Translations under genes and position numbers: made by a program
Assembly (NCBI GenBank): GCA_003168335.1
Contig: PMSM01000002.1
Coordinates: 484,899 to 548,898 of the forward strand
Direction: 5' to 3'
Origin: Blastocatellia bacterium
GTDB taxonomy: Bacteria > Acidobacteriota > Blastocatellia > Pyrinomonadales > Pyrinomonadaceae
DNA length: 64,000 nt
Shown: piece after piece, positions 10,098 through 30,940 of the stretch
How the letters are laid out: the number at the start of each line of letters is the position of its first letter
Position numbering within the stretch: position 1 is the first letter of the stretch
Notes under the pieces: generated by a model
The model's input: only the letters and a program-made list of their open reading frames with translations
What the model was told of the DNA's origin: nothing
Database searches by the model: none

Positions 10098-10125
10098 TTT
10101 TCTAAACCGAGCGAGAGGAATTTTG

Positions 10126-14177: not shown

Positions 14178-15401
14178 CTATTGAAACGCGACGTGACCCC
14201 CGACGATTGTCAGCCGCAGATTCCGAGCTTCATCCAGAGCCACCAGATCCGCGCGCTTCCCTTCCTCAATCGATCCGCAATCAACATCGATTCCCAGCAG
14301 GCGCGCAGGATTCAGTGAGGCCATGCGCGCTACGTCGGATTCAAAAATTCCGAGCGAGAGCATCATGCGGACCGCGTCCAGCATGGTGATAACTGAACCC
14401 GCAATGCTGCCGCGGGCGTTTTGAGTCCGGCCGTCTTTCACCACAATCTTCTCGTCCCAGATGTGATACTCGCCGTCGCCAAGCCCGGTGGGCGCAATGG
14501 CATCGCTGATCAAAGAAACTCGGTCCGCGGTCTTGCTGCGCAGAATTAACTTGAGTATGGAAGGGTCGACATGGATTCCGTCGGCGATCACGTCACAGGT
14601 GACCTGATCGTGAATCAGGCCCCAGCCCACCGGCCCAGGCGCGCGATGATGCAACGGCGCCATGGCATTCATGAAGTGGGTCATATGATGGGCGCCGGCC
14701 CGCAGTGCTTCGTCGAGAACGTCGACTGTGGCGCGCGTATGCCCGATTGAAATGATCCATCCGCGCCGGTGAAGTTCGTGGATCAGGGCAACGCCGCCCT
14801 CGATCTCCGGCGCGAGGGTCATCATGTGGATCGCGCTTTCGTGCTTGATTGTCGGGAGCGCATCAAGGTCGGCCGCATTTTGATAAGGGCGAAAGTGCTC
14901 GCGATGAAGCGCGCCGCATTGTTCGCTGTTAACAAACGGACCTTCATAGTGAACGCCAAGAACGCGCGCTGGTGGCACAGACTTCAGTCTGTGATCGCGA
15001 GCGCCGGAATCAGCACAGACTGAAGTCTGTGCCACCGCCTTTTCAATCGCGTGGATCGCTTGTTCGTATTGCTCAATCGTCGAGGGCACCAGCGTCGGCA
15101 ACCAGGCAGTGACCCCCTTACTTGCCAGAAACATTCCGACTCGGCCCAGGTCGTCCGCGTTCGCGGCCATCGTGTCGACACCGGCGGCGCCGTGAATGTG
15201 GAGGTCTATGAATCCGGGGAAGAGAGTGAGGCCGTCCAGATCGACTACGGCATCGGCCGCCGGCAACTGAGGTGTTTCCGAATCAAAAACTCGGACGATG
15301 TGACCTGCTTCGATCAGCACAGCGCCCTGCTCGATCACGCGATCGTGACCGATGATCCGCGCGCCGCGCAATAGAAGCGAGTTGGTCGAATCTGGTGCCA
15401 T
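14178..15401 (-). CDS. nagA: N-acetylglucosamine-6-phosphate deacetylase (carries an in-frame palindromic insertion)
   Basis: GFIDLHIHGAAGVD metal site, LPTL, LGVHYEGPF, SIGHT, THFMNAM, DGIHV and GSIAGS motifs of NagA. 407 aa. Confidence 0.9.
   Translation of the reverse strand: MAPDSTNSLLLRGARIIGHDRVIEQGAVLIEAGHIVRVFDSETPQLPAADAVVDLDGLTLFPGFIDLHIHGAAGVDTMAANADDLGRVGMFLASKGVTAWLPTLVPSTIEQYEQAIHAIEKAVAQTSVCADSGARDHRLKSVPPARVLGVHYEGPFVNSEQCGALHREHFRPYQNAADLDALPTIKHESAIHMMTLAPEIEGGVALIHELHRRGWIISIGHTRATVDVLDEALRAGAHHMTHFMNAMAPLHHRAPGPVGWGLIHDQVTCDVIADGIHVDPSILKLILRSKTADRVSLISDAIAPTGLGDGEYHIWDEKIVVKDGRTQNARGSIAGSVITMLDAVRMMLSLGIFESDVARMASLNPARLLGIDVDCGSIEEGKRADLVALDEARNLRLTIVGGHVAFQ
14971..15036. 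repeat. Perfect 66-bp nested palindrome inside the nagA coding sequence
   Basis: GGTGGCACAGACTTCAGTCTGTG (14971-14993) is the exact reverse complement of CACAGACTGAAGTCTGTGCCACC (15014-15036), with a 20-nt spacer. Each arm is itself a hairpin (CACAGACT-nn-AGTCTGTG). Confidence 0.95.
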
Positions 15402-15500: not shown

Positions 15501-18500
15501 CTAGAAGATGAACTTCGCCCCCAGTTGAATCGTGCGCGGGTCGCGCACGACGCTGACATTGCCGTACGTAGCAGACGTGACATTCACGATTATCGTCTGG
15601 AAGTTCGTGTGATTGAAAATGTTGAAGGCTTCCGCGCGAAGCTGCACCTGCAGCGATTCGCCAAAGCGAAAGTTCTTACTCATCGTGAAGTCAACACGCT
15701 GGGTTGGTGGGCCATTGATAACGCCACGACCTCCGTTGCCGATGACGTTGGTCACGCCGGTCGTAAGTACCGTGGGGTTGAGCTGGAAACAAGCGGTGTT
15801 GAAGTACTGCTGGAGCGTATGCGGTGCATTAGCGTTTGGATCGCACAGGACGTTCGGCCTCGCGCCGGCGACCAGGGCCGGGACGAATCCCAGGCCGGCC
15901 GCGTCGAAGGAGGAAGTTGCCGGCGTGAACGGTATGCCGCTGCGGTAGGCGAGGATGCCTGATGCTTGCCACCCGCCCAAAAGCTTGCCGGCAAACCCTT
16001 CCTGATTGCGGTAGAACGGCAGCTCATAGACGTAATTTATAGTCAGAACATGTCGCCGATCGAGTGTCGCCCTGCCATAGTCAGCCTTGTTGTTGTAAGA
16101 GTTCTGCGAAGCGGTCGAGCGATCCGTTTGATTGTCCGTCATGTTTCGCGACCACGTGTACGCGAGGCTGACCTGCGAAGAGCCGGTGAACCTCCGCTGC
16201 GCGCTCACCTGTAGGCTGTGATAATTCGAGTTGAACTGCGGCGTAATGATCGCAATCGATCGATAACCCCGGTACGGCCGGATTTGATCGAGGATCGCGG
16301 TGTTGGCGGTCGAAGTAAACGCAGCCCCGGGGTTCTGGCAGGGAATCGTTGGCGTAGTTGAAGCGCCCGCGGCGCAAAGCGTCGCCAGTGCCTTTCCCGC
16401 GGGAACTTCATTCAATTCGTAAGTGCCAATCAGATGTGTGCCCTTCGAACCGAAGTAGCCAGCGGTCACTACGGTCTTACCGTCTTTCCCGAACTGATGC
16501 TGCAGGTCCAGATTCCAATGCTGCATGTAGGGATCCTTCCACTCGGGTTGCACGGCCCGCACGCTCAGCGCGGTTAGCGCGGCTGCCGGACTGACAACAA
16601 TTCCGGTGGGAACGGGCAGATCAAGACGGGGTGTGGTTGCGGCCGTTCCCGATGGCAGAGCGCTCGCCGTAAATGTTTCCTGATAGGGCACGTTCTGACC
16701 AATATTCTGTTCGTACGTACCATTCAGAACTTGATCATAGTAAATGCCATAACCCATGCGAACCGACGAAGTGCCTTTGCCAAACGGATCCCAGGCAATG
16801 CCAAAACGCGGACCCAGATCGTTCTTGGGGGCCTTTACGACCTTATTCCCATAGGGCGAAATTGTTGGCGTACAGTTGTTCGGGCCAGTTTGATAGTTCT
16901 GCGCATTTACTGTAATGCCGTCGCAGAAATTGCCCGTACCAACCACGCGATTGCCGGCGCCCGTGACCAGCGGGGCCGTGGCGGGATTGAACAAGGCGGG
17001 ATCAAAATTTGACAGGCGGCCGTTTCTGTCCTCCGGCGAGCCGAAATATGAATAGCGCAGCCCATAGTAGACTGTGATATTGGGCCGTATCTTCCATTCA
17101 TCCTGGCCATAAAACTCGATGGTCTTCTGCCGCAAATCAGCCGTGTAATCAAAGTGCGCCTGAGTAAAAGTCACATTGCTTCCCATCAGGAAGTTTGCGA
17201 AATTCTGGAAGTTCGTACGGCGCGCAGAATTCGGCTCACCCACCGCAGCGTTTGGAGCCAGCACGCTGGTTTGCTGGGCGCTGTTGGCAGTCGTGTTGAG
17301 GAAACCGCTGAACGTGCCTTCGTTGCTTCCCGCCAGCGCGTTTTCGTTCTTGCGGTAGAGGGAATACTGCCCGCCGAATTTAAAAGCGTGCCGGCCTCTG
17401 GTCCAGGCAACGTCACTCGCGAAATTCGCTTTGTAGGAGAAGTTGTTGTAAGGGCCAAAGCTTTGCAACGCACTGAAGCCGTTTCCTGAGATAGTCGGAA
17501 CGCGATCGCGCGTGTTGGCATAAGCTAGGGGCGGCGTGATCGGTGAATTGGCTAACGCCAGGGTGCCAATGTTGCTGCTCAGAATCGCGCCGTAGCCATA
17601 AGTAAAGCGACCGACGATGACCAGATTTGAACTCGCGACATACGTTGACTGGAACGTGTGGGCTTTCCCTGGCGAATCAGTCGCCGTCGTGGAAACACCT
17701 GGCAATCCCGAGCCTGATGAAAATAATGAATTAACGTCCGTTGTCGGGATCTTGTCATGTTCATAGCGATAATACATCGACAACTTGTTGCTGAAGCTGT
17801 AGTCAAGCTTGAGAATCTCTTGGCGGAAATCCGCTTTACCCAGCGCGGGAAATAAAAGAGCGCGAGTGACCGGATCAGTGGGCAAAGGGAGCTGGTTGTA
17901 GATTGAATTTAGGTACTGTTGAGCGATCGGGTTGATCGCCACCTTAGACGATAACGGCTGGCCAGCCAGAAGGACGTTCGTGCACGGGACAGCTCCCGTC
18001 GTTAACGCGGTAAAGGCACTCACACAGACGTCCATTGGGAAAATTCCCTGGCGCATGTTCAGGTCAGGGACGGTTGAAGAGAGCGTGGGATAGCGAAGGT
18101 CGTGGCGCTGTTCTTCTGAAAAGAAGAAGAACGCTCGCTTGATTGTCTTGGTCGAAGCTCCACCCTCTGCAAGCCGCGGAAGGATGATAGGTCCGCCGAC
18201 GGTTCCACCAAAATTGTTGTACTTGAAGGGGGACCGGTTAGCTTTGCCGTTTGTGTCTCTGCCGAAAGCCGGGCTCGAGATAGTGTTTGATAAGAAATCG
18301 TTGGCGTTCAGTTTCTCACTCCGGTGGAATTCAAATATCGAGCCGTGAAAATGATCCCCTCCGGACTTTGTAACCACGTTGACTTGACCGCCGCCACTGC
18401 GTCCTGACTCCGCGAGGAACATTGACCGCAGGACAACAAACTCAGCAATCGAGTCCACGCTCGGATATGCCTGAATCGTGATGTTCGAGCCACGGTCGGT

Positions 18501-19130
18501 GATATCCGCACCATCGACGGTGTAAGTGTTTTGAGCGCTGCGCGCGCCGTTAACCGAGATATTAATCGTGTTGGCCTGACCGGTCGGATTGGTCGTTCCC
18601 ACATACACCTGATCGGACAGGTTGTCGGAGACGCCCGGGGCGAGCGTAACGAGCTGCACCCAGTTGCGATTGTTCAGCGAAAGCTCACGCGCCTGGTCGC
18701 CGCTGATAACGGTCGCGGCCGTCGGGGTTCTCAATTCAACCGCCAGGGGGTTTGCTTCAACTGTTACTACTTCGCTGATGTTACCCGGTTCGAGAGACAG
18801 CTCCAGGCCACGTTTTTGACCGACGTCCAGTTTAACCTTGGTTTCGATGTGCTTCTTGAAGTTCGGCGCTTCAACGGCTATGTCGTAAGAGCCGGACGGC
18901 AGGTCCGGGGCAGAGAAAGCGCCGCTGTCGTCGGTTGTCACCGTTCGAGCCACGACTTTCTTTTCAGCGTCAGTGATGGTCACGGTCGCACCGGCAACCG
19001 CGGCGCCGTTGGGATCTTTCACCCTCCCGTTGATCGAGCCGTTTATTTCCTGGGCCGAGGCGACGAAAACAAAACTAAAGAGAGCAAGTGCTGCAAACAC
19101 AACGCGCAGAAACTGATGGTGGTGTCTCAT
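15501..19130 (-). CDS. TonB-dependent outer-membrane receptor with N-terminal carboxypeptidase-regulatory-like domain (Oar-like)
   Basis: Signal peptide, GRVKDPNGAAVAGATVTITD (CarboxypepD_reg), a plug region and a very long beta-barrel ending in the aromatic C-terminal residue ...GAKFIF. AGAGGA precedes the ATG. Confidence 0.85.
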   Translation of the reverse strand: MRHHHQFLRVVFAALALFSFVFVASAQEINGSINGRVKDPNGAAVAGATVTITDAEKKVVARTVTTDDSGAFSAPDLPSGSYDIAVEAPNFKKHIETKVKLDVGQKRGLELSLEPGNISEVVTVEANPLAVELRTPTAATVISGDQARELSLNNRNWVQLVTLAPGVSDNLSDQVYVGTTNPTGQANTINISVNGARSAQNTYTVDGADITDRGSNITIQAYPSVDSIAEFVVLRSMFLAESGRSGGGQVNVVTKSGGDHFHGSIFEFHRSEKLNANDFLSNTISSPAFGRDTNGKANRSPFKYNNFGGTVGGPIILPRLAEGGASTKTIKRAFFFFSEEQRHDLRYPTLSSTVPDLNMRQGIFPMDVCVSAFTALTTGAVPCTNVLLAGQPLSSKVAINPIAQQYLNSIYNQLPLPTDPVTRALLFPALGKADFRQEILKLDYSFSNKLSMYYRYEHDKIPTTDVNSLFSSGSGLPGVSTTATDSPGKAHTFQSTYVASSNLVIVGRFTYGYGAILSSNIGTLALANSPITPPLAYANTRDRVPTISGNGFSALQSFGPYNNFSYKANFASDVAWTRGRHAFKFGGQYSLYRKNENALAGSNEGTFSGFLNTTANSAQQTSVLAPNAAVGEPNSARRTNFQNFANFLMGSNVTFTQAHFDYTADLRQKTIEFYGQDEWKIRPNITVYYGLRYSYFGSPEDRNGRLSNFDPALFNPATAPLVTGAGNRVVGTGNFCDGITVNAQNYQTGPNNCTPTISPYGNKVVKAPKNDLGPRFGIAWDPFGKGTSSVRMGYGIYYDQVLNGTYEQNIGQNVPYQETFTASALPSGTAATTPRLDLPVPTGIVVSPAAALTALSVRAVQPEWKDPYMQHWNLDLQHQFGKDGKTVVTAGYFGSKGTHLIGTYELNEVPAGKALATLCAAGASTTPTIPCQNPGAAFTSTANTAILDQIRPYRGYRSIAIITPQFNSNYHSLQVSAQRRFTGSSQVSLAYTWSRNMTDNQTDRSTASQNSYNNKADYGRATLDRRHVLTINYVYELPFYRNQEGFAGKLLGGWQASGILAYRSGIPFTPATSSFDAAGLGFVPALVAGARPNVLCDPNANAPHTLQQYFNTACFQLNPTVLTTGVTNVIGNGGRGVINGPPTQRVDFTMSKNFRFGESLQVQLRAEAFNIFNHTNFQTIIVNVTSATYGNVSVVRDPRTIQLGAKFIF

Positions 19131-19715: not shown

Positions 19716-20402
19716 TTAGCCGCAAACATACGCCTCATGAACGCCGCTCAAGAAATCCCAAAGAGATTTCGCTCCTTGTTGAGCAGCTGCGACTGTCTCG
19801 TCGCGAGCCTGATCGGTGTCGCATGCGTCAGTCATGATTTTCATCTCGATCTGACGGTGGACTTGATCCGCTGACTCGTGGACGGTAAAGAATGACACGG
19901 TCCTGGCATCGTCTATTCCGTAATACTGTTTCAAACCAACTCGTTTCGTCTTAGCCACCTCTGGAATTTGAGACTCGTAGGCATAGAGGACTGCCACCCC
20001 AAGCCGATAATCAGTGTTCGCGGTCAGTGACTTGAGACTGTTCACAGATTCCCTGGTCGAGGGTAGTAGCTCTGCGGTTCTGACCTGGGCCCGACTCACT
20101 CCGAGGCCTTCGGCAAAACGCAGCCACAACTCCGGGTGATTGTCTTCTCCGCGTTCTTCTTCGATCAGGTTCTCGAGGAGTAGCTGTCTAACCGGCAGAT
20201 TATCACAACGGGAGTGTACGGCACTTACATAAGTCGGAAAGGCGCAAACGTGCGCATAGTATTGCTTGGCGTACTCAGCCAGCGTGGTGTCGCTGAGCTT
20301 TCCTTCGTTCCAGAGCTGATAAAAAGGATGCCTCAACATTGCATACTGGCCAATCGCCTCGTCGATTCTTTGCGGCAACAACTGCTGTCGTGTCATGTTC
20401 AC
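19716..20402 (-). CDS. CADD/PqqC-like heme-oxygenase-like diiron protein (putative pABA/folate-related)
   Basis: HPFYQLWNEGKLS..LAEYAKQYYAHVCAFPTYVSAV...LLENLIEEERGEDNHPELWLRFAEGLG matches the CADD family core. By eye the gene is more AT-rich than its neighbours. Confidence 0.75.
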   Translation of the reverse strand: MNMTRQQLLPQRIDEAIGQYAMLRHPFYQLWNEGKLSDTTLAEYAKQYYAHVCAFPTYVSAVHSRCDNLPVRQLLLENLIEEERGEDNHPELWLRFAEGLGVSRAQVRTAELLPSTRESVNSLKSLTANTDYRLGVAVLYAYESQIPEVAKTKRVGLKQYYGIDDARTVSFFTVHESADQVHRQIEMKIMTDACDTDQARDETVAAAQQGAKSLWDFLSGVHEAYVCG

Positions 20403-20492: not shown

Positions 20493-22955
20493 CTATTCGT
20501 AAAGCAAATATTTCCTGCGGGTCCGGTTAAAGCTTTCCAGCGCTGTAGCCCACGAACGAACAACGTCAGCGGCGGGCTCTCCGCGCCGCAAACGCTCGAG
20601 CGTGTCCGCGTTAACCAGCAGGCGCGAATAATTGTCGATCTTCCAGTCGGCGGGAAATAAACTGTGCAACGCCACCGCGATCTCGACGCCGGTGAGCACA
20701 GATTGGAACTGCGAGCGATTGGTTATCAACAGGTTTATGCCACCGCACTCTTCGTTCTTGAAGACCGACGACCTGGGTGTGAAGCGAACGGCAATGAAGC
20801 GCACGCCGGCAATTCTGCGGGCATTCAAATAGCTCGCCAGCTTCTGCCCATCCAACCAGGGCGCGCCCATCACTTCGAAGGGCGTGTCCGTTCCGCGGCC
20901 CACGGAAAGGTTGGTCGTTTCCAGTAAGCCAACGCCCGGATACAGCGCGGCTTCCGTCAGGCTGCGCATGTTGGGTGAAGGATTGATCCAGACGAGACCC
21001 GTCGCGTCGAACCACATCGATCGCTGCCAACCTTCCATCTTGATAACGCGTAAATCCGCGCCGATGTGGCGCTCGTCATTATAGAGTCGTGCCAATTCGC
21101 CAATCGTCAATCCATGCCGAACCGGCAACGTGTGGTAAGCAGTGAAAGAAAGTTTATCTGCGTCGGCAATTGGCCCTTCGACATCGTTGCCGTTAATCGG
21201 ATTGGGACGGTCGAGCACAAATACCGGTAGCCTGGCTTTGCCAGCTTCTTCCATCACGTAGCCCAGGGTCGCGATGTAGGTGTAGAAACGCACGCCGACG
21301 TCCTGAATGTCGTAAACCAGCGCGTCGAGGTCTTTCAACTGGTCGGCTTTTGGGCGGCGCGATTCGCCATAAAGTGAATAGATCGGCAACCCGGTCTGTT
21401 CGTCTTTCGTGTCTGAAACTTTCTCGTCCGCGAGTCCACGAATGCCGTGCTCAGGTGAAAAGAGCGCCGACAATTTGACGCCCGGCGCTTTGAAAAGAAT
21501 GTCGATAGTCGATCGGCCGGCACGATCCCGTCCCGTCTGATTGGTGACCAAACCAATTCGCAAACCCGCAAGCTGTTTGAAGCCATCGCGCTCGAGCACA
21601 TCGATCCCGGTCAACACTTGTGCGTCGGCAACGGGACCAGGGTTAACGATTGTTCGCGCGCTGTTTGAATTCAGGCGAGCAAGACTCGCGAGCACTTCCG
21701 CCGCTGCGCCTGCCGATTCTTCGCGGGCTTTCGTTACCGTAGTGTCGGTGATTGAACTCGCAACGATCGACGCCACTCGTCCGCGCAACGGCCCTACATC
21801 TCCCTTGCCATCCGGATGCACGCGATTACTCAGAACGATCACGAACGAATCGCTCGCCGGATCGATCCACATCGATGTCCCGGTGAAGCCGGTGTGGCCA
21901 AACGAACCGAGCGGGAACAGATCCCCTTTGTTGGTCGAGAAGCTGGTCGCTATGTCCCAGCCCAATCCACGCGCCGATCCGTTTTCGGCAATTGCCCGGG
22001 GTCGCGTCATCGTCGCTACTCCCATCGGACTGAGAATTCGCACGCCGTTGTAAATGCCTCCGTTCAAAATCATCTGGCAAAAGATCGCCAGATCATTGGC
22101 CGTAGAGAACAAACCAGCGTGCCCCGCGACTCCGTTCATGCGAAACGAAGTGGGGTCGTGCACCTGTCCGCGCAACCACTGCTCGCCTTGCGGTCCGGCG
22201 TTCTCACCACTGTCACCGAGATAGTTCATCTGGCCGCGCCGTTTCTCGGTCGGTGCGATTCGGGATCTCAGTCCAGCGTCTGGGTTAAAGCCGGTATCGC
22301 GCATTCCCAGCGGCCCAAAAATATTTTCCCGCGCGAACTGATCAAGCGTCTGTCCGCTTACTCGATGCACTACTTCGCCCAAAGCGATGTAGTTGATGTC
22401 ACTGTAGACAAAGCGCGCACCCGGTTGATTGCGCAGGGGTTCGCGATACAGCCTCTTGATCGCTTCGTCGTACCCCGTCCAGCGCTCTCGCAAATCGAAA
22501 TCAGGAGCAAACCCGGCCGTATGGGTCAGCAGTTGCTCGATCGTGATCGCATCTCGGCCTCCGCCCTTCATTTCGGGTATGAACGTGACCACCGGATCGC
22601 TCAGACGCACTTTGCCCTGCTCGATTAGAATCATGATGCTGGTTGTCGTGGCAACTATCTTGGTCAGACTGGCGAGGTCGAAAATCGTGTCCGCCGTCAT
22701 CGCTTCGCGCTGCGGTTCGACCGCGCGTGAACCGTAAGCTTTGCGCCAGGCGATGCGGCCGTGGCGGGCGACCAGCACCACCGCGCCGGGCAATTCTTTC
22801 TTTTCGATTGCAGCCTGGACGACCTGATCCATACGGGCCAGGCGTTCGGCGGACATGCCGACAGCGGCGGGCGCGGTTTGCGGCAGTTGCGCTGCGATGG
22901 TTTGCGCCAGCAGAACTACCAGCGCGATGGAAAGCCTGATATGCTGGGCCATCAT
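20493..22955 (-). CDS. Secreted fusion: beta-lactamase-fold serine hydrolase (AmiE/PBP4*-like) + DUF1343 exo-beta-N-acetylmuramidase (NamZ-like)
   Basis: Signal peptide. The N-domain has SLTK (FDLASLTKIVATT), YSDINY and HTGFTG. The C-domain has LVTNQTGRDRAGRSTIDILF...LFSPEHGIRG...VYDIQDVGVRFYTY, typical of DUF1343. The start overlaps the nagZ stop (ATGATGA). Confidence 0.8.
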   Translation of the reverse strand: MMAQHIRLSIALVVLLAQTIAAQLPQTAPAAVGMSAERLARMDQVVQAAIEKKELPGAVVLVARHGRIAWRKAYGSRAVEPQREAMTADTIFDLASLTKIVATTTSIMILIEQGKVRLSDPVVTFIPEMKGGGRDAITIEQLLTHTAGFAPDFDLRERWTGYDEAIKRLYREPLRNQPGARFVYSDINYIALGEVVHRVSGQTLDQFARENIFGPLGMRDTGFNPDAGLRSRIAPTEKRRGQMNYLGDSGENAGPQGEQWLRGQVHDPTSFRMNGVAGHAGLFSTANDLAIFCQMILNGGIYNGVRILSPMGVATMTRPRAIAENGSARGLGWDIATSFSTNKGDLFPLGSFGHTGFTGTSMWIDPASDSFVIVLSNRVHPDGKGDVGPLRGRVASIVASSITDTTVTKAREESAGAAAEVLASLARLNSNSARTIVNPGPVADAQVLTGIDVLERDGFKQLAGLRIGLVTNQTGRDRAGRSTIDILFKAPGVKLSALFSPEHGIRGLADEKVSDTKDEQTGLPIYSLYGESRRPKADQLKDLDALVYDIQDVGVRFYTYIATLGYVMEEAGKARLPVFVLDRPNPINGNDVEGPIADADKLSFTAYHTLPVRHGLTIGELARLYNDERHIGADLRVIKMEGWQRSMWFDATGLVWINPSPNMRSLTEAALYPGVGLLETTNLSVGRGTDTPFEVMGAPWLDGQKLASYLNARRIAGVRFIAVRFTPRSSVFKNEECGGINLLITNRSQFQSVLTGVEIAVALHSLFPADWKIDNYSRLLVNADTLERLRRGEPAADVVRSWATALESFNRTRRKYLLYE

Positions 22956-24871
22956 TTTTTGGGGCGCGCTTTCAGTTGGATTCCGGTGCCGCGAGGATAC
23001 AGACCCGGCAGCGAAATCGGCAAGTGGCCAGTGACATCGATTTGTCCCAGCAGCGCTTCGGCACTCGCTTCCTGCAGGCTCTGCATGTCGCCATACGCGA
23101 CGAGATATGTTTGTAGTTTGGGAAAACTGCCCAGCAGATAGGGATTGCCAAAGCTGATTCCGACTATCGGCGTCTGGCGATCAATTAAGGTCGCCAACAC
23201 CTTTGCGCCGGGTTCGGGCAGAGCGACACTGCGGGCCTGACCGGTACGCACACGGCCATACAGGGAAGCAATCACCAGATCCGCGCGGCCGGCCAGGTCG
23301 AGGGCTTTTTTCACCTCCGCCTCGGACGAGCGATCGTCGAGGACGATCGTTACTACTTTTCGCCCTGAGCGGGCCAGGGTAGACACGAAAGGCTGAGTAA
23401 TAAATGAGCGGTCGTCACCGTTGGTGATGGCGAGGTTGAAAACGGTTGCCGTCGGCGGAAGGTTCAGTGGCAGCAGTGCGGCGTCGTTGCGAACCAGAGT
23501 GATGGCATGCGCGGCGATCTCATCAGCCAGTTCCAAAGTCTCCTTGCCTCCCACAATTCGATCTATCTCATCCAATGGCGTGATGCGTTGCTCGATCAAT
23601 CCCAGATCGTATTTCGCAGCCAGGACTTTTCGCGCGGACTCTTCGATGCGCTTCTCAGTTAGCCTGCCTTTCTTGACCGCATCGCGCACGCCGCGAAAGG
23701 CTGCATCCGTATCGGCAGGCTTCAAAAGTAAATCCGCGCCCGCCTCCAGCGCGCGGATCGATGCCTCTTCCTGAGTAAAGTAGAGCGTAAGGCCGCTCAT
23801 GCTCATCGCGTCGGTCACGATCAGTCCGTCGAAGCCTAGTTCGTTACGCAGAATCTTGTTCATGACCGGTGAGAGTGTGGTTGGCATCGTTCCTTTCTCA
23901 GACACAATTTCCCCGGCCTCGTCAGTCTCAATCGGTCCCAGCTTCACATCCCGAGGCAGTGGTGTGATGGCCGTCGGATCGATCAACGGCAAGCCGATAT
24001 GACCATCCATGACCGCGCCAACGCCGGCGTTGACCGCGGCGCGGAAGGGGACCAGTTCGACTGAGTTCAAGCGCTCGCGGGTGACATCAATCTCCGGCAG
24101 GCCGCGATGCGAATCGGTCGCCGTGTCACCGTGTCCGGGAAAATGTTTGGCCGTGGCAATCACTCCGCCGCGTTGCGCGCCCAAGACGAAGGCTGCGACC
24201 AGTTTGGCTACTTCCGCGGGATCCTCGCCATACGAACGCACGTTGATGACCGGATTGGCGGCGTTGTTGTTTACGTCGGCGACCGGGGCGTAAATCTGCT
24301 GCACGCCCAGCGCTCGTGCTTCGCGCGCGGTCAATTCGCCCTGCCGTCGCGCGTAATCCGGATTAGCCGTGGCGCCGACGGCCATGTTCCAGGGGAAGTT
24401 CACCGTATCGTCAAAGCGCATGCCCGCGCCCGCTTCCAGGTCTGAAGAAATCAGCAAAGGGATCTTTGCGAGTTGCTGCATCCGATTGACCAGCATTACG
24501 GACTCGTAAACCGGTCCTCGAAACAGGACGATCCCCCCGACATGGTTGTCCATCACTTGATGGCGGAGATCCTTGAATGCTTCACTGTTCTGATTCAAGA
24601 ACGTTGCGTTGAGACCGACCGCAATCAGTTGGCCAATCTTCTCTTCGATCGACATGCGCTTGAGTTCTTTGTCGGCCCACTTAAGTGCAGCTGAAGACGG
24701 TTTTCGAGAGTACGGCTTGAATGAGTTTTCGCGCAGCGGGGCGTTTAAAAACGCCAGCCGTGGCTCGATGCGAGGTGTCATGCTCCGCGCCATCAGCGGC
24801 GACGTTTGAATAATCAGCACCGCCAGCATCAAGGGCGTGGTGAGTCGACGAATCGTTCCAGTGGTTATCAT
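22952..24871 (-). CDS. nagZ: Secreted two-domain GH3 beta-N-acetylglucosaminidase
   Basis: Signal peptide, GH3 motifs KHFPGHGDTATDSH and VTDAMSM, plus a C-terminal alpha/beta-sandwich domain. At 639 aa it is similar in size and architecture to Bacillus NagZ/YbbD. Confidence 0.85.
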   Translation of the reverse strand: MITTGTIRRLTTPLMLAVLIIQTSPLMARSMTPRIEPRLAFLNAPLRENSFKPYSRKPSSAALKWADKELKRMSIEEKIGQLIAVGLNATFLNQNSEAFKDLRHQVMDNHVGGIVLFRGPVYESVMLVNRMQQLAKIPLLISSDLEAGAGMRFDDTVNFPWNMAVGATANPDYARRQGELTAREARALGVQQIYAPVADVNNNAANPVINVRSYGEDPAEVAKLVAAFVLGAQRGGVIATAKHFPGHGDTATDSHRGLPEIDVTRERLNSVELVPFRAAVNAGVGAVMDGHIGLPLIDPTAITPLPRDVKLGPIETDEAGEIVSEKGTMPTTLSPVMNKILRNELGFDGLIVTDAMSMSGLTLYFTQEEASIRALEAGADLLLKPADTDAAFRGVRDAVKKGRLTEKRIEESARKVLAAKYDLGLIEQRITPLDEIDRIVGGKETLELADEIAAHAITLVRNDAALLPLNLPPTATVFNLAITNGDDRSFITQPFVSTLARSGRKVVTIVLDDRSSEAEVKKALDLAGRADLVIASLYGRVRTGQARSVALPEPGAKVLATLIDRQTPIVGISFGNPYLLGSFPKLQTYLVAYGDMQSLQEASAEALLGQIDVTGHLPISLPGLYPRGTGIQLKARPKK

Positions 24872-24895: not shown

Positions 24896-26404
24896 TCAAC
24901 TGTCAGGAAGCAGCGGAGGATTCTTTGCCGGCCCTGTTATTAAGCTGACCGCATAGCCAACTGACGAACATATGATCGTCCCCGTCAACACGTACCAGGT
25001 CCATGCTAGTGGCGTCCTGAGCCATACATACAACATAACGCCGAGGGCCACGGCCATTCCGGCCATCACGCCTCTTTGGTTGGCGCGCTTCGTTAGGACG
25101 CCCAGCAAAAAAGCTCCCAACATGGCTCCGTACGGCAACGACGCTATCGTAAGCGCAGTATTGAGGACCGACTTTGTGAAACTCTTTGATGCTATTGCGA
25201 TGACGATCAGCACCAGGCCCCACCCTACCGTGAACCAACGTGACAATCGCAAGAGAGATTCGTCCGATACCTGAGGATTGACCAGCGGTCTATATAGATC
25301 GAGGGCCGTGCTCGATGAAAGCGAATTCAAGGAACCGCTGAGATTAGACATCGCAGCGGCAAAAATGGCAGCGATAACCAGTCCGGATATCCCGTGTGGC
25401 AATTGGCGAACGATAAAGAACGGAAAAATCTGATCGTTGCTCTCCAGCGTGGGTCTTGGTGCACCAGTTTGGTAGTAGGCATAGAGCATGACACCGATCA
25501 GGAGGAATAGAACGAACTGAAACAGCACGACGAATCCACTCAGAATAATTGCCTTCTGGCTGTCTCGTTTATTTCGGCAGGTAAGTAGTCTCTGGACCAG
25601 TAGTTGATCAGTTCCATGCGAGGCCATGGTTAGGAATGTGCCCCCCAGGAGGCCGGCCCAGAAAGTAAACGGCACCGTCAGGTCGAATTTGAACGAGACC
25701 ATCTGAAACTTGTTTGCCGCCGCGGCCTGCGCCGCAATTGCATTCCACCCGCCCGGCACCAGATGCAGCAGTTCGTAGGCTGCCAGCAGAGAGCCCCCAA
25801 CGTAAATTATTAGCTGAATCAAATCGGTCCAAATTACCGCGGCGATGCCACCTTCAAAGGTGTAAACCATGGTCAGCAGTCCGACGATGATAATCGACCA
25901 AAGCCACAGGTAAGGCAGCTGCGGCATGCTGGCACCAAGGACTGCACTGAGCACGAGCGAAGCCGAGAAGATTCGTATCCCTTCGCCCATCGCACGCATC
26001 CCCAGAAACAACGAAGCCGCAAAGTTCTTTGTTTGCGGCCCAAATCTTCTCCGCAGGAGTTCATATGCCGTTAGCAACTCGCCGCGAAAGTACGCTGGAA
26101 TAAAGAGGAAGCTAATGATAAAGCGCGCCACGATATAGCCGAGGACCACCTGCAGGTAGGTGAAGTTACCGCCCTGTTCCGGTCGGGCATAGTTTGCGTA
26201 GGCGATAGCTGGAACACCGATCAGAGTGATCGTGCTGGTCTCGGTGGCCACGATCGAGAGGCTGATGATTATCCAGTGAGTGTTCTTGGCGCCTATAAAA
26301 TAGTCTTTGACGGTCCGTTGCGATCGCCTAAACATCATGCCGAAGATCGTGATCCCGGCGAGATAGATCAGCAGCACCGCGTAGTCTATGGTGGAGAAGC
26401 CCAT
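24896..26404 (-). CDS. Sodium:solute symporter (SSF) family transporter
   Basis: 502-aa polytopic protein with an SSF-type pattern (GG..AVIWTD.IQ, HGTDQ.LVQR). Confidence 0.8.
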   Translation of the reverse strand: MGFSTIDYAVLLIYLAGITIFGMMFRRSQRTVKDYFIGAKNTHWIIISLSIVATETSTITLIGVPAIAYANYARPEQGGNFTYLQVVLGYIVARFIISFLFIPAYFRGELLTAYELLRRRFGPQTKNFAASLFLGMRAMGEGIRIFSASLVLSAVLGASMPQLPYLWLWSIIIVGLLTMVYTFEGGIAAVIWTDLIQLIIYVGGSLLAAYELLHLVPGGWNAIAAQAAAANKFQMVSFKFDLTVPFTFWAGLLGGTFLTMASHGTDQLLVQRLLTCRNKRDSQKAIILSGFVVLFQFVLFLLIGVMLYAYYQTGAPRPTLESNDQIFPFFIVRQLPHGISGLVIAAIFAAAMSNLSGSLNSLSSSTALDLYRPLVNPQVSDESLLRLSRWFTVGWGLVLIVIAIASKSFTKSVLNTALTIASLPYGAMLGAFLLGVLTKRANQRGVMAGMAVALGVMLYVWLRTPLAWTWYVLTGTIICSSVGYAVSLITGPAKNPPLLPDS

Positions 26405-26421: not shown

Positions 26422-27336
26422 CTAGCCCGACGCGAGCAGCGTGATTGCCTGCGCGACTACGCCTTTCGTTTCCTGCAATGCTCTCTTTGCTTCCGCGGCC
26501 GTGCGGCCGGTCTTGCTCATTACCAGCGCCACCGGCAAATCATCGCCGGCTTCCGCGAGGACTTTTTTGGCTTGCTCTTCGTCCAGTCCCGATTCAAGTT
26601 GCAGAATGCGCAAGGCGCGCGCGCGCAACTTAACGTTGCGCGTTTGCACATTCGTCATGCGATTGCCGGTGACGTAGCCGAGCCGAATCATCGTCGCAGT
26701 CGAGATCATATTGAGCACCAGCTTCTGTGCGGTCCCGGCTTTCAAACGCGTCGAACCGGCGATAACTTCCGGACCAACAACTGGAACTATGCTGATCTCC
26801 GCGGCCTTTGTGATCGAAGATCCGGGCACGCAGGTGATCGCCACCGTGAAGGCGCCGAGTTTTCGTGCCTGCTCAACCGCGCCCACCGTGTAGGGTGTTC
26901 GCCCCGATGCTGCAATGCCGACCAACGCGTCTTGCTTTGTGAAACCGCGCGCCTGGAGATCGCGGGCACCGGCGGCTGCATCGTCTTCGGATGCTTCGAC
27001 GGCGCGATAACACGCTTCGTATCCGCCCGCCATGATCCCCTGTACCAGTTCCGGGGAGACGCCGAAGGTCGGCGCACATTCCGCGGCGTCGAGCACGCCG
27101 AGCCTTCCTGATGTTCCCGTGCCGAGGTAAAAAAGCCGGCCGCCTTTATTAAGTCGGGTGACGATTCCGTCCACCGCTCGCGCAACCTCAGGCAAGACCT
27201 GCGCGACTGCGGCCGCTACGCGCGCATCTTCTTCGCTCATCAGACGCAGAATCTCCGTAGTCGGCAAAGAACTGATTTGCGCCGTGCGCGGATTTTCTTG
27301 CTCAGTTAATGGAGTGGACTCAGGAGCTTCTGGCAT
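26422..27336 (-). CDS. murQ: N-acetylmuramic acid 6-phosphate etherase
   Basis: SIS domain with LFYLGTGTSGRLGVLDAAECAPTFG, IAASGRTPY and STRLKAGTAQK.VLNMIST, as in MurQ. Confidence 0.9.
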   Translation of the reverse strand: MPEAPESTPLTEQENPRTAQISSLPTTEILRLMSEEDARVAAAVAQVLPEVARAVDGIVTRLNKGGRLFYLGTGTSGRLGVLDAAECAPTFGVSPELVQGIMAGGYEACYRAVEASEDDAAAGARDLQARGFTKQDALVGIAASGRTPYTVGAVEQARKLGAFTVAITCVPGSSITKAAEISIVPVVGPEVIAGSTRLKAGTAQKLVLNMISTATMIRLGYVTGNRMTNVQTRNVKLRARALRILQLESGLDEEQAKKVLAEAGDDLPVALVMSKTGRTAAEAKRALQETKGVVAQAITLLASG

Positions 27337-27399: not shown

Positions 27400-28389
27400 T
27401 CAGACCGCAACCGGCAATCCATGCAGATGCTCTTGCGCCAGGCGGCCGGCAGCGACCGTGGGCGAAAAGCTTGGGGCGGCAATAAAAGCCTTCTGGGCGA
27501 CGCGCGCTATTTCCTCGCGCAATGGTGCGATCACAAATTCACCGGCGGCGAAAACACCCCCGACGAAAGCTACCTGAAAGCGCTCCGGCTCCATTTTCAA
27601 CTTGCGAACTACGGTTGCCGCTGCTTTGCCCAGCTCTTTTCCTGCTTCGGTCAAAATATTACGAGCCACGGTGTCCCCCCCCCGCGCCGTTTCAATAACG
27701 CGTTTGCTAAAGCCGGCTATCCGATCGTTGGTGATCGTCGGGGCGTAGATCGCAGTTGATAGATCATCGGCTGTGGCCACCTGAAAATATTCACATGCGG
27801 CTGCGGTCAATGCCGTCCTGGGCCCACGCTCATCACTTGCATGCGCCACCGCCTGCAGCGCACGTCTGGCGATCCATGATCCGCTGCCTTCGTCGCCGGC
27901 GACCGGGCCCCAGCCTCCGGCATACACGTGCTTGCCCTGCCGGTTGACGCCGCAGCAAATTGATCCGGTGCCGGAAATTACGACAATTCCCGGCGCACCG
28001 TCAGTGGCGCCATACAAAGCGATGTCGCCGTCAGTCATCAGCTCGATGTTTTTGATCTCCAGCGTTTCGATTAAGACTTCGCGCATGCGCGTGCGGATGT
28101 CTTTGCGTCTGACACCGGCGAGGCCAATTCCGGCGGCAATCAGATCATCACGATCGATCCGAGCCGCAGAGCACGCCTTGTCGATAGCTTCGCGAATGGC
28201 CGCGGCGCCGTTGGCAATCCCCACGCGTAACGGATTTGAGGGGCCAGATGTGCCTTCACCCAACACCCGATCGCCGTCAAGAATCGCCGCTCGAGTTCGG
28301 GTCCCGCCGCCGTCAACGCCTACAACCAGTTTCCGCAACGGAGCCAGCCGCCGCGGTACCAGGTCCACAGTTGTTTGCGTTGTCGTCAT
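27400..28389 (-). CDS. BadF/BadG/BcrA/BcrD-type sugar kinase (GlcNAc/MurNAc kinase, MurK-like)
   Basis: ASKHA N-terminal phosphate-1 motif VGVDGGGTRTRAAI, then ISGTGS and GGWG..AGDEGSG. It sits directly upstream of murQ. Confidence 0.7.
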   Translation of the reverse strand: MTTTQTTVDLVPRRLAPLRKLVVGVDGGGTRTRAAILDGDRVLGEGTSGPSNPLRVGIANGAAAIREAIDKACSAARIDRDDLIAAGIGLAGVRRKDIRTRMREVLIETLEIKNIELMTDGDIALYGATDGAPGIVVISGTGSICCGVNRQGKHVYAGGWGPVAGDEGSGSWIARRALQAVAHASDERGPRTALTAAACEYFQVATADDLSTAIYAPTITNDRIAGFSKRVIETARGGDTVARNILTEAGKELGKAAATVVRKLKMEPERFQVAFVGGVFAAGEFVIAPLREEIARVAQKAFIAAPSFSPTVAAGRLAQEHLHGLPVAV

Positions 28390-28506: not shown

Positions 28507-29457
28507 ATGGACATCAGACAACTAAAGGCATTTGTAGCGATAGCGGAGAGCGGCACTTTCACTGCGGGAGCCGTGCGGGTCCATGTAACGCAGGCGGCCA
28601 TCAGCATGCAGATCCGGCAATTGGAAACCGAGACCCACGCGCAGCTTTTCATCCGTGCTCCACGGCGCGTGATTCTTACAGAGGCGGGCGAGAAACTGCT
28701 CGAGCGCGCGTACACAATCCTGCGCGAGCACGATGCGGCCTTGGAAGAACTCGCCGCGCTCACCGGCGCTCATCGCGGGCGACTCCGCATTGGCAGCGCA
28801 TCAGCGATGGTCAGCGCCGATCCTTTGCCGCAGATTCTCAAAGAGCTGCGCGGGACGCATGCCGGCGTCGAGACCTCTGTCGGTTCGGGAACCAGCGAGT
28901 CGTTGGTGAAACAGGTACTGGCGGGCGAGCTCGACGCGGCTTTTGTGTCCTTGCCTGTCGAGGCGCGCGGAGTGCAAACAGAACTTTTGAGCGAGGATTA
29001 TTTGGTAGCGATTGCCTCGCCTCGCCACCCGATGGCAAAACAAAAGATCGTCAGCGCCTACGCGCTGGCGGGTGAGAAGCTGATTCTCGGAGAGCGCGGC
29101 GGCAATACCCGACGACTCATCGATCAGTTTTTTGCCCAGGCCGGCGTGACGCTAAAGGTCACAATGGAGTTGAGCCGGCTGGCGGCCATCAAGCGCATGG
29201 TGGAAGAAGACATGGGCGTCGGCATCGTGCCCTTGCGGTCAGTTCAGGAAGAAGTGCGGAGCGGAAGCCTGGTGCGTTGGTGGATCGAAGGCGCGCAAAT
29301 CAACTGGCAACTCGGCGTGGCGCGGCTCGTCGGTGGTTACGAATCGCCGATCCATCTAAAGTTCCTGCAACTTTGCCGCGAACATTTCGCCCAACCCGCG
29401 GCGGTGACTCCGCCCTCACGGCAGAAACAAAAACAAAAGAAAAAAGCGGCCGTTTAG
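28507..29457 (+). CDS. LysR-family transcriptional regulator
   Basis: N-terminal wHTH MDIRQLKAFVAIAESGTFTAGA..VHVTQAAISMQIRQLE plus a substrate-binding domain. It is divergent from the murK-like operon. Confidence 0.85.
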   Translation: MDIRQLKAFVAIAESGTFTAGAVRVHVTQAAISMQIRQLETETHAQLFIRAPRRVILTEAGEKLLERAYTILREHDAALEELAALTGAHRGRLRIGSASAMVSADPLPQILKELRGTHAGVETSVGSGTSESLVKQVLAGELDAAFVSLPVEARGVQTELLSEDYLVAIASPRHPMAKQKIVSAYALAGEKLILGERGGNTRRLIDQFFAQAGVTLKVTMELSRLAAIKRMVEEDMGVGIVPLRSVQEEVRSGSLVRWWIEGAQINWQLGVARLVGGYESPIHLKFLQLCREHFAQPAAVTPPSRQKQKQKKKAAV

Positions 29458-29524
29458 AGGCGGGCAGGCAAGGCCCGCCTGGTAACGCTATTGGATCGTG
29501 GCGGGCAGTAGCCCGCCTCTAAAC
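29452..29524. repeat. GTTTAGAGGCGGGC-type inverted repeat spanning two convergent stop codons
   Basis: GTTTAGAGGCGGGCAGGCAAGGCCCGCC ... GGCGGGCAGTAGCCCGCCTCTAAAC. The TAG of the LysR gene (29455-29457) and the TAG of the aminotransferase gene (complement of 29519-29521) both lie in the arms. Confidence 0.85.
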
Positions 29525-30634
29525 AGCATACTGGCTCAGCCCCGCGATCAATCTCTCAATATCCTCTTCGTCATTAAAAAAATGCGTCGCGACCCGAATG
29601 CCCTGCGGCTTTTCGGTAACCACAACTCCGCGGCGAAAAAGATGGCGGACTACTTCACCGGGCTTCTCGACTTCGATCAGTGTTTCCGCTGAACGCGCGG
29701 TTTCATTCTGCAGGGGCGAGAGAACCTTCCAGCCATTTTCGGCCAGCCGTGACGTAAGCCTCCGATTCAACTCCAGCACGCGCGCCTGGATGTTCGCGGC
29801 TCCGCACGCGGTCATTAAATCGACTGAAGCGCCGAGCGAAAAGATTCCCGCGAAATGCGGACAGCCAAGCTCGACCCGCGCCGCAGCATCGTGACGCGGA
29901 CGAAACTCGTCGTTGCGCATGTCGAAAGGCTGCTCGACACTCAGCCAGCCGATGGAACGCGGCAGCGATTGGTTGAGCAGTTCACGGCTGAGATAAACAA
30001 AACCCGAACCGTATCCGGCGAGCAGCCATTTGTGGCCGGTCGCGCACAGCGCGTCGATCTTCATGCGCTTCACATCGATCTCAAACGCGCCGGCGGATTG
30101 ACTCGCGTTAATGACCAGGGCGTGTTTGCCTTTTACTTCTCCGACTTTTTCCGGATCGATGCGAAAGCCGTTCGAGAATTGCACGTGACTGAGCGCGATG
30201 ACGCCAGTGTCGTGCGTCATCGCGCCGGCGATGTCCTCGATTCGCACTTCGCCTTCGACCGCCGGGAGCAGGTGAACGGGAATCCGGCGATGCATCCAGG
30301 GCAGTGTGGTGACGGGAAACTCAAGCTCGCTGGAGATAACTTCACCGCGATCTTCCAGCGCATCCACGATCACGTTCATGCCCGACGAGGTATTCGTCGT
30401 AAACGCGATCTCTTCCGGTTCGGCATTGATGAAGGCGGCAATGTTTTTTCGGATCGTTTCTCGATCAGCGAGCCAGCGATTCCAATGGACGTCGCCGTCG
30501 CTCATCATCTTTCCGTAGTAACCGGAAGCGGCTTCGAAAGATGCGCGCGACACCGGCCCCGCCGCCGCGCTGTTGAGATAGGCGAGCTTTTCCGTTACCG
30601 GAAATTGTTTACGGATGTCGACCCAGTTGATCAT
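29519..30634 (-). CDS. Class V aminotransferase / cysteine-desulfurase-like PLP enzyme
   Basis: LAYLNSAAAGP..., ALSHVQFSNG and the PLP-lysine context DALCATGHKWL. I trimmed the start to Met44 (ATG at 30634) because the longer ORF runs through an intergenic repeat. Confidence 0.7.
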   Translation of the reverse strand: MINWVDIRKQFPVTEKLAYLNSAAAGPVSRASFEAASGYYGKMMSDGDVHWNRWLADRETIRKNIAAFINAEPEEIAFTTNTSSGMNVIVDALEDRGEVISSELEFPVTTLPWMHRRIPVHLLPAVEGEVRIEDIAGAMTHDTGVIALSHVQFSNGFRIDPEKVGEVKGKHALVINASQSAGAFEIDVKRMKIDALCATGHKWLLAGYGSGFVYLSRELLNQSLPRSIGWLSVEQPFDMRNDEFRPRHDAAARVELGCPHFAGIFSLGASVDLMTACGAANIQARVLELNRRLTSRLAENGWKVLSPLQNETARSAETLIEVEKPGEVVRHLFRRGVVVTEKPQGIRVATHFFNDEEDIERLIAGLSQYAV

Positions 30635-30692
30635 GTCGATGACGAAGATTACACGATGAGGTGAGCGGGGCGGTAGCCCGAGGGAGTTCTCA

Positions 30693-30940
30693 GAAGCGCC
30701 AACGGCGCGCAATGCAATAGCCTGGGGCAACGCCCCAGGATTGGGAATCCCCACGTGAAACAAAGCGCTGAAAGCGCGAAATAGACGTTGAAGGTTGTTC
30801 TTTCGATCTATTAGGTCGACGGTTTATGTTCGCCGTTTGATGCGCACGTTTCATGTCGCGCTTTCAGCGCTTGCGTGTTCTCTGATTGTCTACCTGGGGC
30901 GTTGCCCCAGGCTATTACATTTCGCGCCTTCGGCGCTTAA
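30693..30940. repeat. F-type ~250-bp composite inverted repeat, copy 1
   Basis: The left half is GAAGCGCC-AAC-GGCGCGCAATGCAATAGCCTGGGGCAACGCCCCAGG...AGCGCTGAAAGCGCG. It is mirrored by CGCGCTTTCAGCGCT...CCTGGGGCGTTGCCCCAGGCTATTACATTTCGCGCC-TTC-GGCGCTTAA. Confidence 0.85.

Follow-up and report, generated by a model that had tools for sequence, protein, structure and literature searches.

The enzymes NagZ, AmiE and NamZ have been shown experimentally to act one after the other on peptidoglycan, working from its non-reducing end (Müller et al. 2021, PMC8054146). NamZ enzymes accept only N-acetylmuramic acid (MurNAc) that is free of peptide and bears a free lactyl carboxylate. The distribution of NamZ described in the 2021 paper covers the Bacteroidetes, Firmicutes, Actinobacteria and gamma-proteobacteria, and the Acidobacteriota, Planctomycetota and Verrucomicrobiota are unmentioned there (PMC8054146). 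A domain architecture in which a DD-peptidase domain (PF00144) is joined to DUF1343 had already been tabulated in a 2008 survey (Tripathi & Sowdhamini, PMC2605481). Here, a gene of this kind was analysed in a 64,000-nucleotide stretch of DNA from a Blastocatellia bacterium, a soil acidobacterium of the Pyrinomonadaceae (assembly GCA_003168335.1, contig PMSM01000002.1, positions 484,899 to 548,898), which is referred to in full as the window. The gene encodes an AmiE-like domain and a NamZ domain in a single polypeptide, and its product is probably a bifunctional, exo-acting hydrolase of peptidoglycan that is exported, most likely to the periplasm, and that belongs to a MurNAc-salvage operon.

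The coordinates of the open reading frame (ORF) were confirmed (Table 1). The ORF is initiated by ATG and contains no internal stops, and the plus-strand frame over the same interval is riddled with them. The initial annotation of this DNA had described a secreted protein of 820 amino acids (aa), and the ORF was recovered at that length on the minus strand, a detail previously left unstated, with a signal peptide predicted at its N terminus. The features of this putative signal peptide are Arg7, a hydrophobic core at aa 8–21 and then IAA, with Q following the predicted boundary. All three Pfam matches (PF00144, PF07075 and PF20732) far exceeded their gathering scores, by margins that exclude a chance match, and they agree with the earlier call of a beta-lactamase fold joined to a complete DUF1343/NamZ domain. 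Every motif quoted at that stage was located in the translated ORF, namely SLTK (aa 96–99), YSDINY (aa 184–189) and HTGFTG (aa 354–359) in the N-terminal half, and LVTNQTGRD (aa 469–477), LFSPEHGIRG (aa 498–507) and VYDIQDVGVRFYTY (aa 547–560) in the C-terminal half. A search of the window for further copies of amiE or namZ found none beyond the fusion gene.

The architecture was compared across large sequence collections. The 120 best protein clusters at 90% identity, drawn from JGI, ENA, NCBI and Logan assemblies, all carried the same three Pfam domains, with sequences 81–97% identical and 783–873 aa long. GTDB was scanned, at one genome per species, with patterns derived from the N-domain, and at least 598 genomes were found to hold a relative. 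The best 80 loci were checked for both domains; each matched both halves at 43–75% identity, and in 79 of them, including the closed long-read chromosomes of two metagenome-assembled genomes (MAGs; L028 and L031), both halves lay in a single stop-free ORF. Finally, an exhaustive HMMER search covered 1.84 billion cluster representatives at 50% identity, and 132 of the best 150, which were inspected, carried both domains. The carriers among the 80 loci span four phyla: the Acidobacteriota (Pyrinomonadaceae, Blastocatellia, Chloracidobacterium, Vicinamibacterales, Thermoanaerobaculia, Terriglobales and Bryobacterales), the Planctomycetota (Gemmataceae, Isosphaeraceae, Phycisphaeraceae and the cultured Paludisphaera soli JC670, L073), the Verrucomicrobiota and the Proteobacteria. 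The initial annotation had proposed a domain-architecture search as a check on how widespread the fusion is; PF00144 fused with NamZ is spread over hundreds of species.

For comparison, the Bacillus subtilis murP-amiE-nagZ-namZ locus (L001) was recovered from a metagenome contig by means of the NamZ signal peptide published in PMC8054146. In this locus amiE and namZ are separate genes, whereas 79 of the 80 loci and 132 of the 150 representatives have them fused, which is the pattern of a Rosetta-stone protein. The two genes had been described as neighbours in B. subtilis; they do belong to the same operon, but nagZ stands between them. The functional link that had been drawn from the Rosetta-stone pattern stands on a real and reproducible fusion, although the link itself was demonstrated experimentally in 2021 (PMC8054146).

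The sole split case among the 80 loci was L017, a MAG described as ‘uncultured bacterium’ (contig CBFHBA010000001.1) and, at 75% identity, the closest GTDB representative among them. An in-frame TAA was present at L017:9228-9230 within the poorly conserved linker (TVAIGRA, stop, TSDAAAELIASL), so that the AmiE-like and NamZ halves form two ORFs, the second of which lacks a signal peptide of its own. A sequencing error could account for this stop, as could a pseudogene or a recent fission.

Over 379 aa, the C-terminal half shared 45% identity with B. subtilis NamZ (E = 1e-124), and its best match among solved structures was 4K05, the Bacteroides fragilis enzyme BfNamZ1 (NamZ1; 3e-79). The proposed catalytic Glu92 and the active-site Arg279 of the B. 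subtilis enzyme (BsNamZ; PMC8054146) correspond to E502, within PEHG, and R687, within GRGT. Conservation was computed over 73 diverse fusions from four phyla, 43–75% identical overall, and both residues were invariant. With every feature of glycoside hydrolase family 171 (GH171) that can be read from a sequence in place, the C-terminal half is assigned to this family, and exo-beta-N-acetylmuramidase activity is predicted for it. To our knowledge, no mechanism has been established for GH171.

The N-terminal half contains the motifs S96-x-x-K99, Y184-S-D186, V265-H-D267 and H354-T-G356. Across the 73 fusions S96, K99, Y184-S-D186, V265, D267 and H354-T-G356 were invariant, residue 266 was His in 72, and positions H279, L282 and S284 of the GHAGLFS motif were slightly variable. 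The invariance of the Ser, Lys, YSD and HTG residues argues for an active enzyme. The regions least conserved in the same set were the linker, which ranked lowest, a loop of the N-domain at aa 241–260 and the N-terminal 40 aa of the protein.

The closest characterised relatives of the N-terminal half were B. subtilis AmiE (33% identity by BLASTP, E = 2e-53) and Escherichia coli YfeW, also called penicillin-binding protein (PBP) 4B (31%, E = 1e-59), ahead of the other beta-lactamase-fold families compared. AmiE and YfeW are 53% identical to one another. In phmmer comparisons these two proteins scored 156–182 bits, as against at most 131 bits for any solved structure (EstU1, 4IVI), with 7U1B at 121. 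The motifs SxxK, YSD, VHD, GHAGLFS and GHTG(F/W)TG are common to the N-domain, AmiE and YfeW. Among curated families, the best match was NCBIfam NF002968, named ‘PBP4B’, at 211–214 bits; the next family reached about 90–93 bits, with AmpH (74) and class C beta-lactamases (62) lower still. The equivalog cut-off of NF002968 is 385 bits, and while B. subtilis AmiE (757.3) and E. coli YfeW (890.4) clear it, the N-domain, at 213.6, does not. A score below this cut-off points to a sister subfamily, and by the NCBIfam criterion the N-terminal half is classed as AmiE-like and not as an AmiE ortholog. Its genetic context suggests that it acts as an amidase. We know of no solved structure for AmiE or PBP4B.

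In several Terriglobales/Acidobacteriaceae loci a second, standalone AmiE-like gene was present, divergent from the fusion (L032, L034, L045, L054, L055, L057, L060, L062, L071, L079 and L082). The standalone gene lay directly beside MurQ in 10 of these 11 loci, and no MurQ was detected in L054. This paralog was considered as the true AmiE ortholog and rejected, as it scored only 110–136 bits against AmiE and YfeW, compared with the 156–182 bits of the fused domain.

It could be that the N-domain is instead, along the lines of the DD-/LD-peptidase that the initial annotation had raised as an alternative, a DD-carboxypeptidase or endopeptidase that trims or un-crosslinks stem peptides, with a separate amidase encoded elsewhere supplying the NamZ substrate. 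The best curated model for this half is, after all, named PBP4B, and the literature lists E. coli PBP4B as a PBP of low affinity that acts as a DD-carboxypeptidase; DD-peptidases, too, typically carry SxxK, Yxx and HTG motifs. Note, however, that AmiE is an experimentally proven MurNAc-L-Ala amidase and yet scores 757 bits on this very model, besides being a close relative of YfeW. In addition, NamZ requires MurNAc from which the peptide has been removed, and no Amidase_2/3 or other classical amidase domain was found among the Pfam-scanned ORFs of the window, several ORFs of at least 150 aa being unscanned. The repeated, independent fusions to NamZ, in both orders, also fit consecutive steps better than distant trimming. 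A DD-peptidase is, on this balance, unlikely.

Another interpretation takes the N-domain for an esterase of the family VIII or EstG type, which might, for example, remove O-acetyl groups from MurNAc or work on a different envelope glycan, and in this way prepare or complement the NamZ step. The best solved structures were indeed carboxylesterases, EstU1 (4IVI; 6.5e-37) followed by 7U1B and EstB, and the second-best NCBIfam match was methyl acetate hydrolase. Nevertheless, AmiE and YfeW outscored every esterase, and in an alignment EstU1 lacked the YSD motif, the His of VHD, the GHAG motif and the HTG motif, all of which the N-domain has. The presence of MurQ, NagZ and NamZ also parallels the amiE-containing operon of B. 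subtilis, and an esterase seems less probable still than a DD-peptidase.

Some beta-lactamase-fold proteins are sensors or binders, and the N-domain, the activity of which is predicted from its sequence, might be a catalytically dead module that binds muropeptides or glycan ends and targets NamZ to its substrate. The Ser and Lys of SxxK, the YSD and the HTG are, however, invariant in fusions that are otherwise only 43–75% identical and come from four phyla, which makes a dead binder very improbable. That the fusion is an artefact, with two adjacent genes merged by a sequencing or assembly error as the initial annotation had allowed, can be dismissed on the comparative data for practical purposes: the L017 stop illustrates that split versions can appear in assemblies, but the uninterrupted form recurred in 120 of 120 clusters from independent assemblies, in 79 of 80 loci (closed chromosomes and one cultured isolate among them) and in 132 of the best 150 clusters at 50% identity, and the junction has no internal signal peptide or start context.

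The way in which the two domains are joined was also examined. The core of the linker, at about aa 401–440, showed column identities of 0.14–0.30 and up to 54% gaps across the 73 fusions, and the spacing between the domain matches ranged from about 1 to 51 aa. The reversed order, with NamZ preceding the AmiE-like domain, was found in P0223 (Brevibacillus laterosporus, e.g. WP_206765358.1; a 33-member cluster) and P0224. These proteins keep SLTK, YSD, VHD, GHAGLF and GHTG and are encoded in a large number of complete genomes from a cultured Firmicute, and their existence implies at least two independent fusion events. In P0186 (1349 aa; a 3-member cluster from Logan assemblies) a GH3, NagZ-like domain precedes the AmiE-like and NamZ domains, and the GH3/AmiE junction is free of any internal signal peptide; judged from its domains, this triple fusion covalently unites the three exo-acting activities of the B. 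subtilis pathway. A transporter of the sodium:solute symporter (SSF) family formed the N-terminal part of a fusion with the AmiE-like and NamZ domains in P0173, P0196, P0211 and P0243 (ENA and other sources) and in L084:2196-6362 (a Janthinobacterium MAG). Such a fusion would tether the importer to the periplasmic enzymes presumed to produce its substrate, and it supports the SSF protein as a transporter of MurNAc or muro-saccharides.

The repeated and differently arranged fusions speak for consecutive action and co-localisation of the two activities and not for a specific channel. The initial annotation had raised the possibility that the fusion channels the processing of MurNAc-peptides, and this did not find support: given the poorly conserved linker of variable length and the fusions in the opposite order, a loose tether accounts for the data better than a fixed interface. 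Such a pattern suggests tethering and probably no dedicated channel. What the fusion most likely provides is equal amounts of the two enzymes, their export via one signal peptide and the proximity of two consecutive steps.

Other domain combinations were seen as well. FG-GAP/beta-propeller domains accompanied the beta-lactamase and NamZ domains in P0144 and P0156, and tandem NamZ-NamZ proteins with S-layer homology (SLH) or immunoglobulin (Ig)-like domains were present in P0238 and P0185. These variants suggest cell-surface anchoring or added binding modules in some lineages.

The following sequence of steps is proposed for the bifunctional hydrolase and its operon; the periplasmic location, the order of reactions and the source of the peptidoglycan are likewise part of the proposal. 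Peptidoglycan fragments in the periplasm would derive either from turnover of the cell's own peptidoglycan or, with greater likelihood, from outside, entering via the adjacent TonB-dependent receptor, the presence of which suggests that exogenous fragments are taken up. The secreted GH3 NagZ, co-transcribed with the fusion, would then take off the N-acetylglucosamine (GlcNAc) at the non-reducing end and expose a terminal MurNAc-peptide. Next, the AmiE/PBP4B-like domain, with Ser96 as nucleophile, would cut the stem peptide off the lactyl group of the exposed MurNAc. Removal of the peptide would leave a free lactyl carboxylate, and the NamZ (GH171) domain could then release MurNAc, or possibly the disaccharide GlcNAc-MurNAc. 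The released sugars would be imported by the SSF symporter and phosphorylated by the MurK-like kinase. MurQ would turn MurNAc-6-phosphate (MurNAc-6P) into GlcNAc-6-phosphate (GlcNAc-6P), which NagA would deacetylate.

The genes assigned to these steps, together with a CADD-like gene, are tightly packed on the minus strand (Table 1) in the order, from upstream to downstream, kinase, MurQ, SSF transporter, GH3, fusion, CADD-like protein, TonB-dependent receptor and NagA. The ATG of the fusion overlaps the stop of the GH3 gene as ATGA. The best PDB match of the kinase was an N-acetylmuramic acid/N-acetylglucosamine kinase (8ZO3; 1.8e-37), and MurQ of the window was 48% identical to E. coli MurQ. 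The GH3 protein shared 30% identity with B. subtilis NagZ in a full-length comparison, and its N terminus is hydrophobic and signal-like. The SSF transporter is a candidate importer of MurNAc or muro-saccharides, the TonB-dependent receptor may take up peptidoglycan fragments, and the divergent LysR-family protein presumably regulates the operon.

Table 1. The fusion gene, its parts and the surrounding genes, in window coordinates.
Feature	Nucleotides	Strand	Residues (aa)	Evidence and remarks
Whole fusion gene	20493..22955	-	1-820	820 aa plus stop codon at 20493-20495; three Pfam domains
Putative Sec signal peptide	22890..22955	-	1-22	MMAQHIRLSIALVVLLAQTIAA followed by QLP; by-eye reading and hydropathy scan
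Beta-lactamase-fold serine hydrolase domain, AmiE/PBP4B-like	21795..22829	-	43-387	PF00144, E = 5e-78
Inter-domain linker	21621..21794	-	388-445	variable core at about aa 401-440
Predicted NamZ/GH171 exo-beta-N-acetylmuramidase domain	20496..21620	-	446-820	PF07075 and PF20732
NamZ_N			467-666	PF07075, E = 8e-84, 280.5 bits (cut-off 26.9)
NamZ_C			671-819	PF20732, E = 1e-43, 150.2 bits (cut-off 25)
LysR-family regulator, divergent, candidate operon regulator	28507..29457	+		HTH_1, LysR_substrate
BadF/BcrA-type sugar kinase, MurK/NagK-like	27400..28389	-		PF01869
MurQ, MurNAc-6-phosphate etherase	26422..27336	-		three NCBIfam MurQ models, 367-394 bits, all above cut-off
SSF family transporter	24896..26404	-		PF00474, TIGR00813
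Secreted two-domain GH3 beta-N-acetylglucosaminidase, NagZ/YbbD-like	22952..24871	-		Glyco_hydro_3 N- and C-terminal domains
CADD/PqqC-like gene, between fusion and TonB-dependent receptor	19716-20402	-		TIGR04305 ‘putative folate metabolism protein’
TonB-dependent outer-membrane receptor, downstream	15501..19130	-		OMP_b-brl_4, CarboxypepD_reg, Plug
NagA, GlcNAc-6-phosphate deacetylase	14178..15401	-		TIGR00221, 298 bits (cut-off 226)

Relatives within the Pyrinomonadaceae retain the divergent LysR gene followed by kinase-MurQ-SSF-GH3-fusion. Across the 80 loci at least one pathway neighbour was kept in 55, the neighbours being SSF transporters (30 loci), TonB-dependent receptors (28), MurQ (26), the kinase (17) and GH3 (16). 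The TonB-dependent receptor directly follows the fusion in several loci, for example L012, L047 and L076, and the order fusion, TonB-dependent receptor, NagA was repeated in L012, L033 and L047.

A CADD/PqqC-like neighbour was also present at L009 and L018 and has no obvious tie to peptidoglycan catabolism. Within 10–17 kb of the operon, the window encodes a Mur-ligase-family protein (Mur_ligase_M and Mur_ligase_C, 503 aa; 3842-5353, plus strand) and a gamma-glutamyltranspeptidase (10123-11889, plus strand). Either could conceivably process the stem peptides set free, the former as a recycling ligase similar to Mpl, the latter by cutting at gamma-D-Glu. Two matches to the Rfam small RNA (sRNA) Acido-Lenti-1 exceeded the gathering score, at 30893-30937 (plus strand; 48.4 bits) and 30695-30739 (minus strand; 40.4 bits). 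They lie on opposite strands, about 150 nucleotides apart, near the 5' end of an aminotransferase-like ORF (29519-30763), and are consistent with the acidobacterial origin of the window.

The reading of the gene product as a bifunctional exo-acting hydrolase draws further weight from the independent fusion of the same activities, as NamZ-AmiE-like in Brevibacillus, as GH3-AmiE-like-NamZ and as SSF-AmiE-like-NamZ. Several points count on the other side. The N-terminal half is only 31–33% identical to AmiE and YfeW and fails the NF002968 equivalog cut-off, the chemistry of the AmiE/PBP4B family is not uniform in the literature, and many Terriglobales loci carry the second, standalone AmiE-like paralog beside MurQ. 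For NamZ itself, the product, MurNAc or GlcNAc-MurNAc, is not predictable from sequence, according to a study of Tannerella forsythia. A GH3 gene was present in only 16 of the 80 loci, and 25 of the 80 had no recognisable pathway neighbour within flanks of up to 8 kb, shorter at contig ends. Finally, AlphaFold2, given the full-length sequence and 24 aligned close homologs (81–96% identical), returned an unusable model, with a mean predicted local distance difference test (pLDDT) score of 35 and a predicted template modelling (pTM) score of 0.25, and no claim about an interface is drawn from it.

A broader proposal, which is tentative and goes further than we would readily commit to, is that the fused N-domain constitutes a separate AmiE-like subfamily with a specificity of its own, for example the processive removal of stem peptides from the ends of glycan chains. 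It would then work alongside NagZ and NamZ, in some cases linked covalently to these enzymes or to the SSF importer, in a periplasmic exo-lytic disassembly line for peptidoglycan by which soil Acidobacteriota, Planctomycetota and Verrucomicrobiota might feed on bacterial necromass taken up via the TonB-dependent receptor.

Proteins of this kind are already annotated by existing pipelines, as ‘YbbC (DUF1343 family)/CubicO group peptidase’ at JGI and as ‘exo-beta-N-acetylmuramidase NamZ domain-containing protein’ in RefSeq. A literature search for a biochemical or structural study or a functional interpretation of the fused enzyme found none and yielded only the 2008 architecture table. The domain layout of the window's gene is identical to the PF00144-DUF1343 architecture given in that table and in the JGI and RefSeq annotations, all of which are plain listings. 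The gene of the window adds no new functional link, fold or kind of system; it is an ordinary example of a catalogued but uncharacterised architecture. If the chemistry proposed here is right, however, many soil Acidobacteriota, Planctomycetota and Verrucomicrobiota would hold a periplasmic NagZ, AmiE, NamZ pathway of the B. subtilis type. This pathway would be coupled with a TonB-dependent receptor and with catabolism through MurQ, and it would bear on the use of cell-wall necromass by abundant soil bacteria. The fusion family also offers a handy single-protein system in which to study two poorly understood enzymes, AmiE/PBP4B and GH171.

B. subtilis NamZ (YbbC), the founding member of GH171 (PMC8054146), and the C-terminal half studied here are alike in their 45% identity, in both Pfam NamZ domains, in the residues equivalent to Glu92 and Arg279, in being secreted (a prediction in the present case) and in being encoded with nagZ and murQ. 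They differ in that the B. subtilis enzyme is a standalone protein of 414 aa, whereas here the domain forms the C-terminal half of an 820-aa protein, and in that the host of the fusion is a diderm acidobacterium. With AmiE (YbbE) and PBP4B (YfeW), the proteins of NF002968, the N-terminal half has in common the fold, the SxxK, YSD, VHD, GHAGLFS and GHTGxTG motifs and a gene within a murQ operon, E. coli yfeW being located in the murQ-murP operon. It is set apart from them by its identity of 31–33%, its score below the cut-off and its attachment to NamZ.

At the level of the operon, the window and the B. subtilis murQ-murR-murP-amiE-nagZ-namZ operon have the NagZ, AmiE-like, NamZ and MurQ steps in common, but in the window the amiE-like and namZ genes are fused, and a kinase with a transporter outside the phosphotransferase system (PTS) takes the place of the PTS. 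In the combination of a kinase with a non-PTS transporter the window resembles the MurT/MurK/MurQ pathway of T. forsythia. As further differences, the regulator in the window is of the LysR family and not of the MurR/RpiR family, a TonB-dependent receptor and NagA are added, and the transporter is of the SSF type, with MurNAc or muro-saccharides as its presumed substrate.

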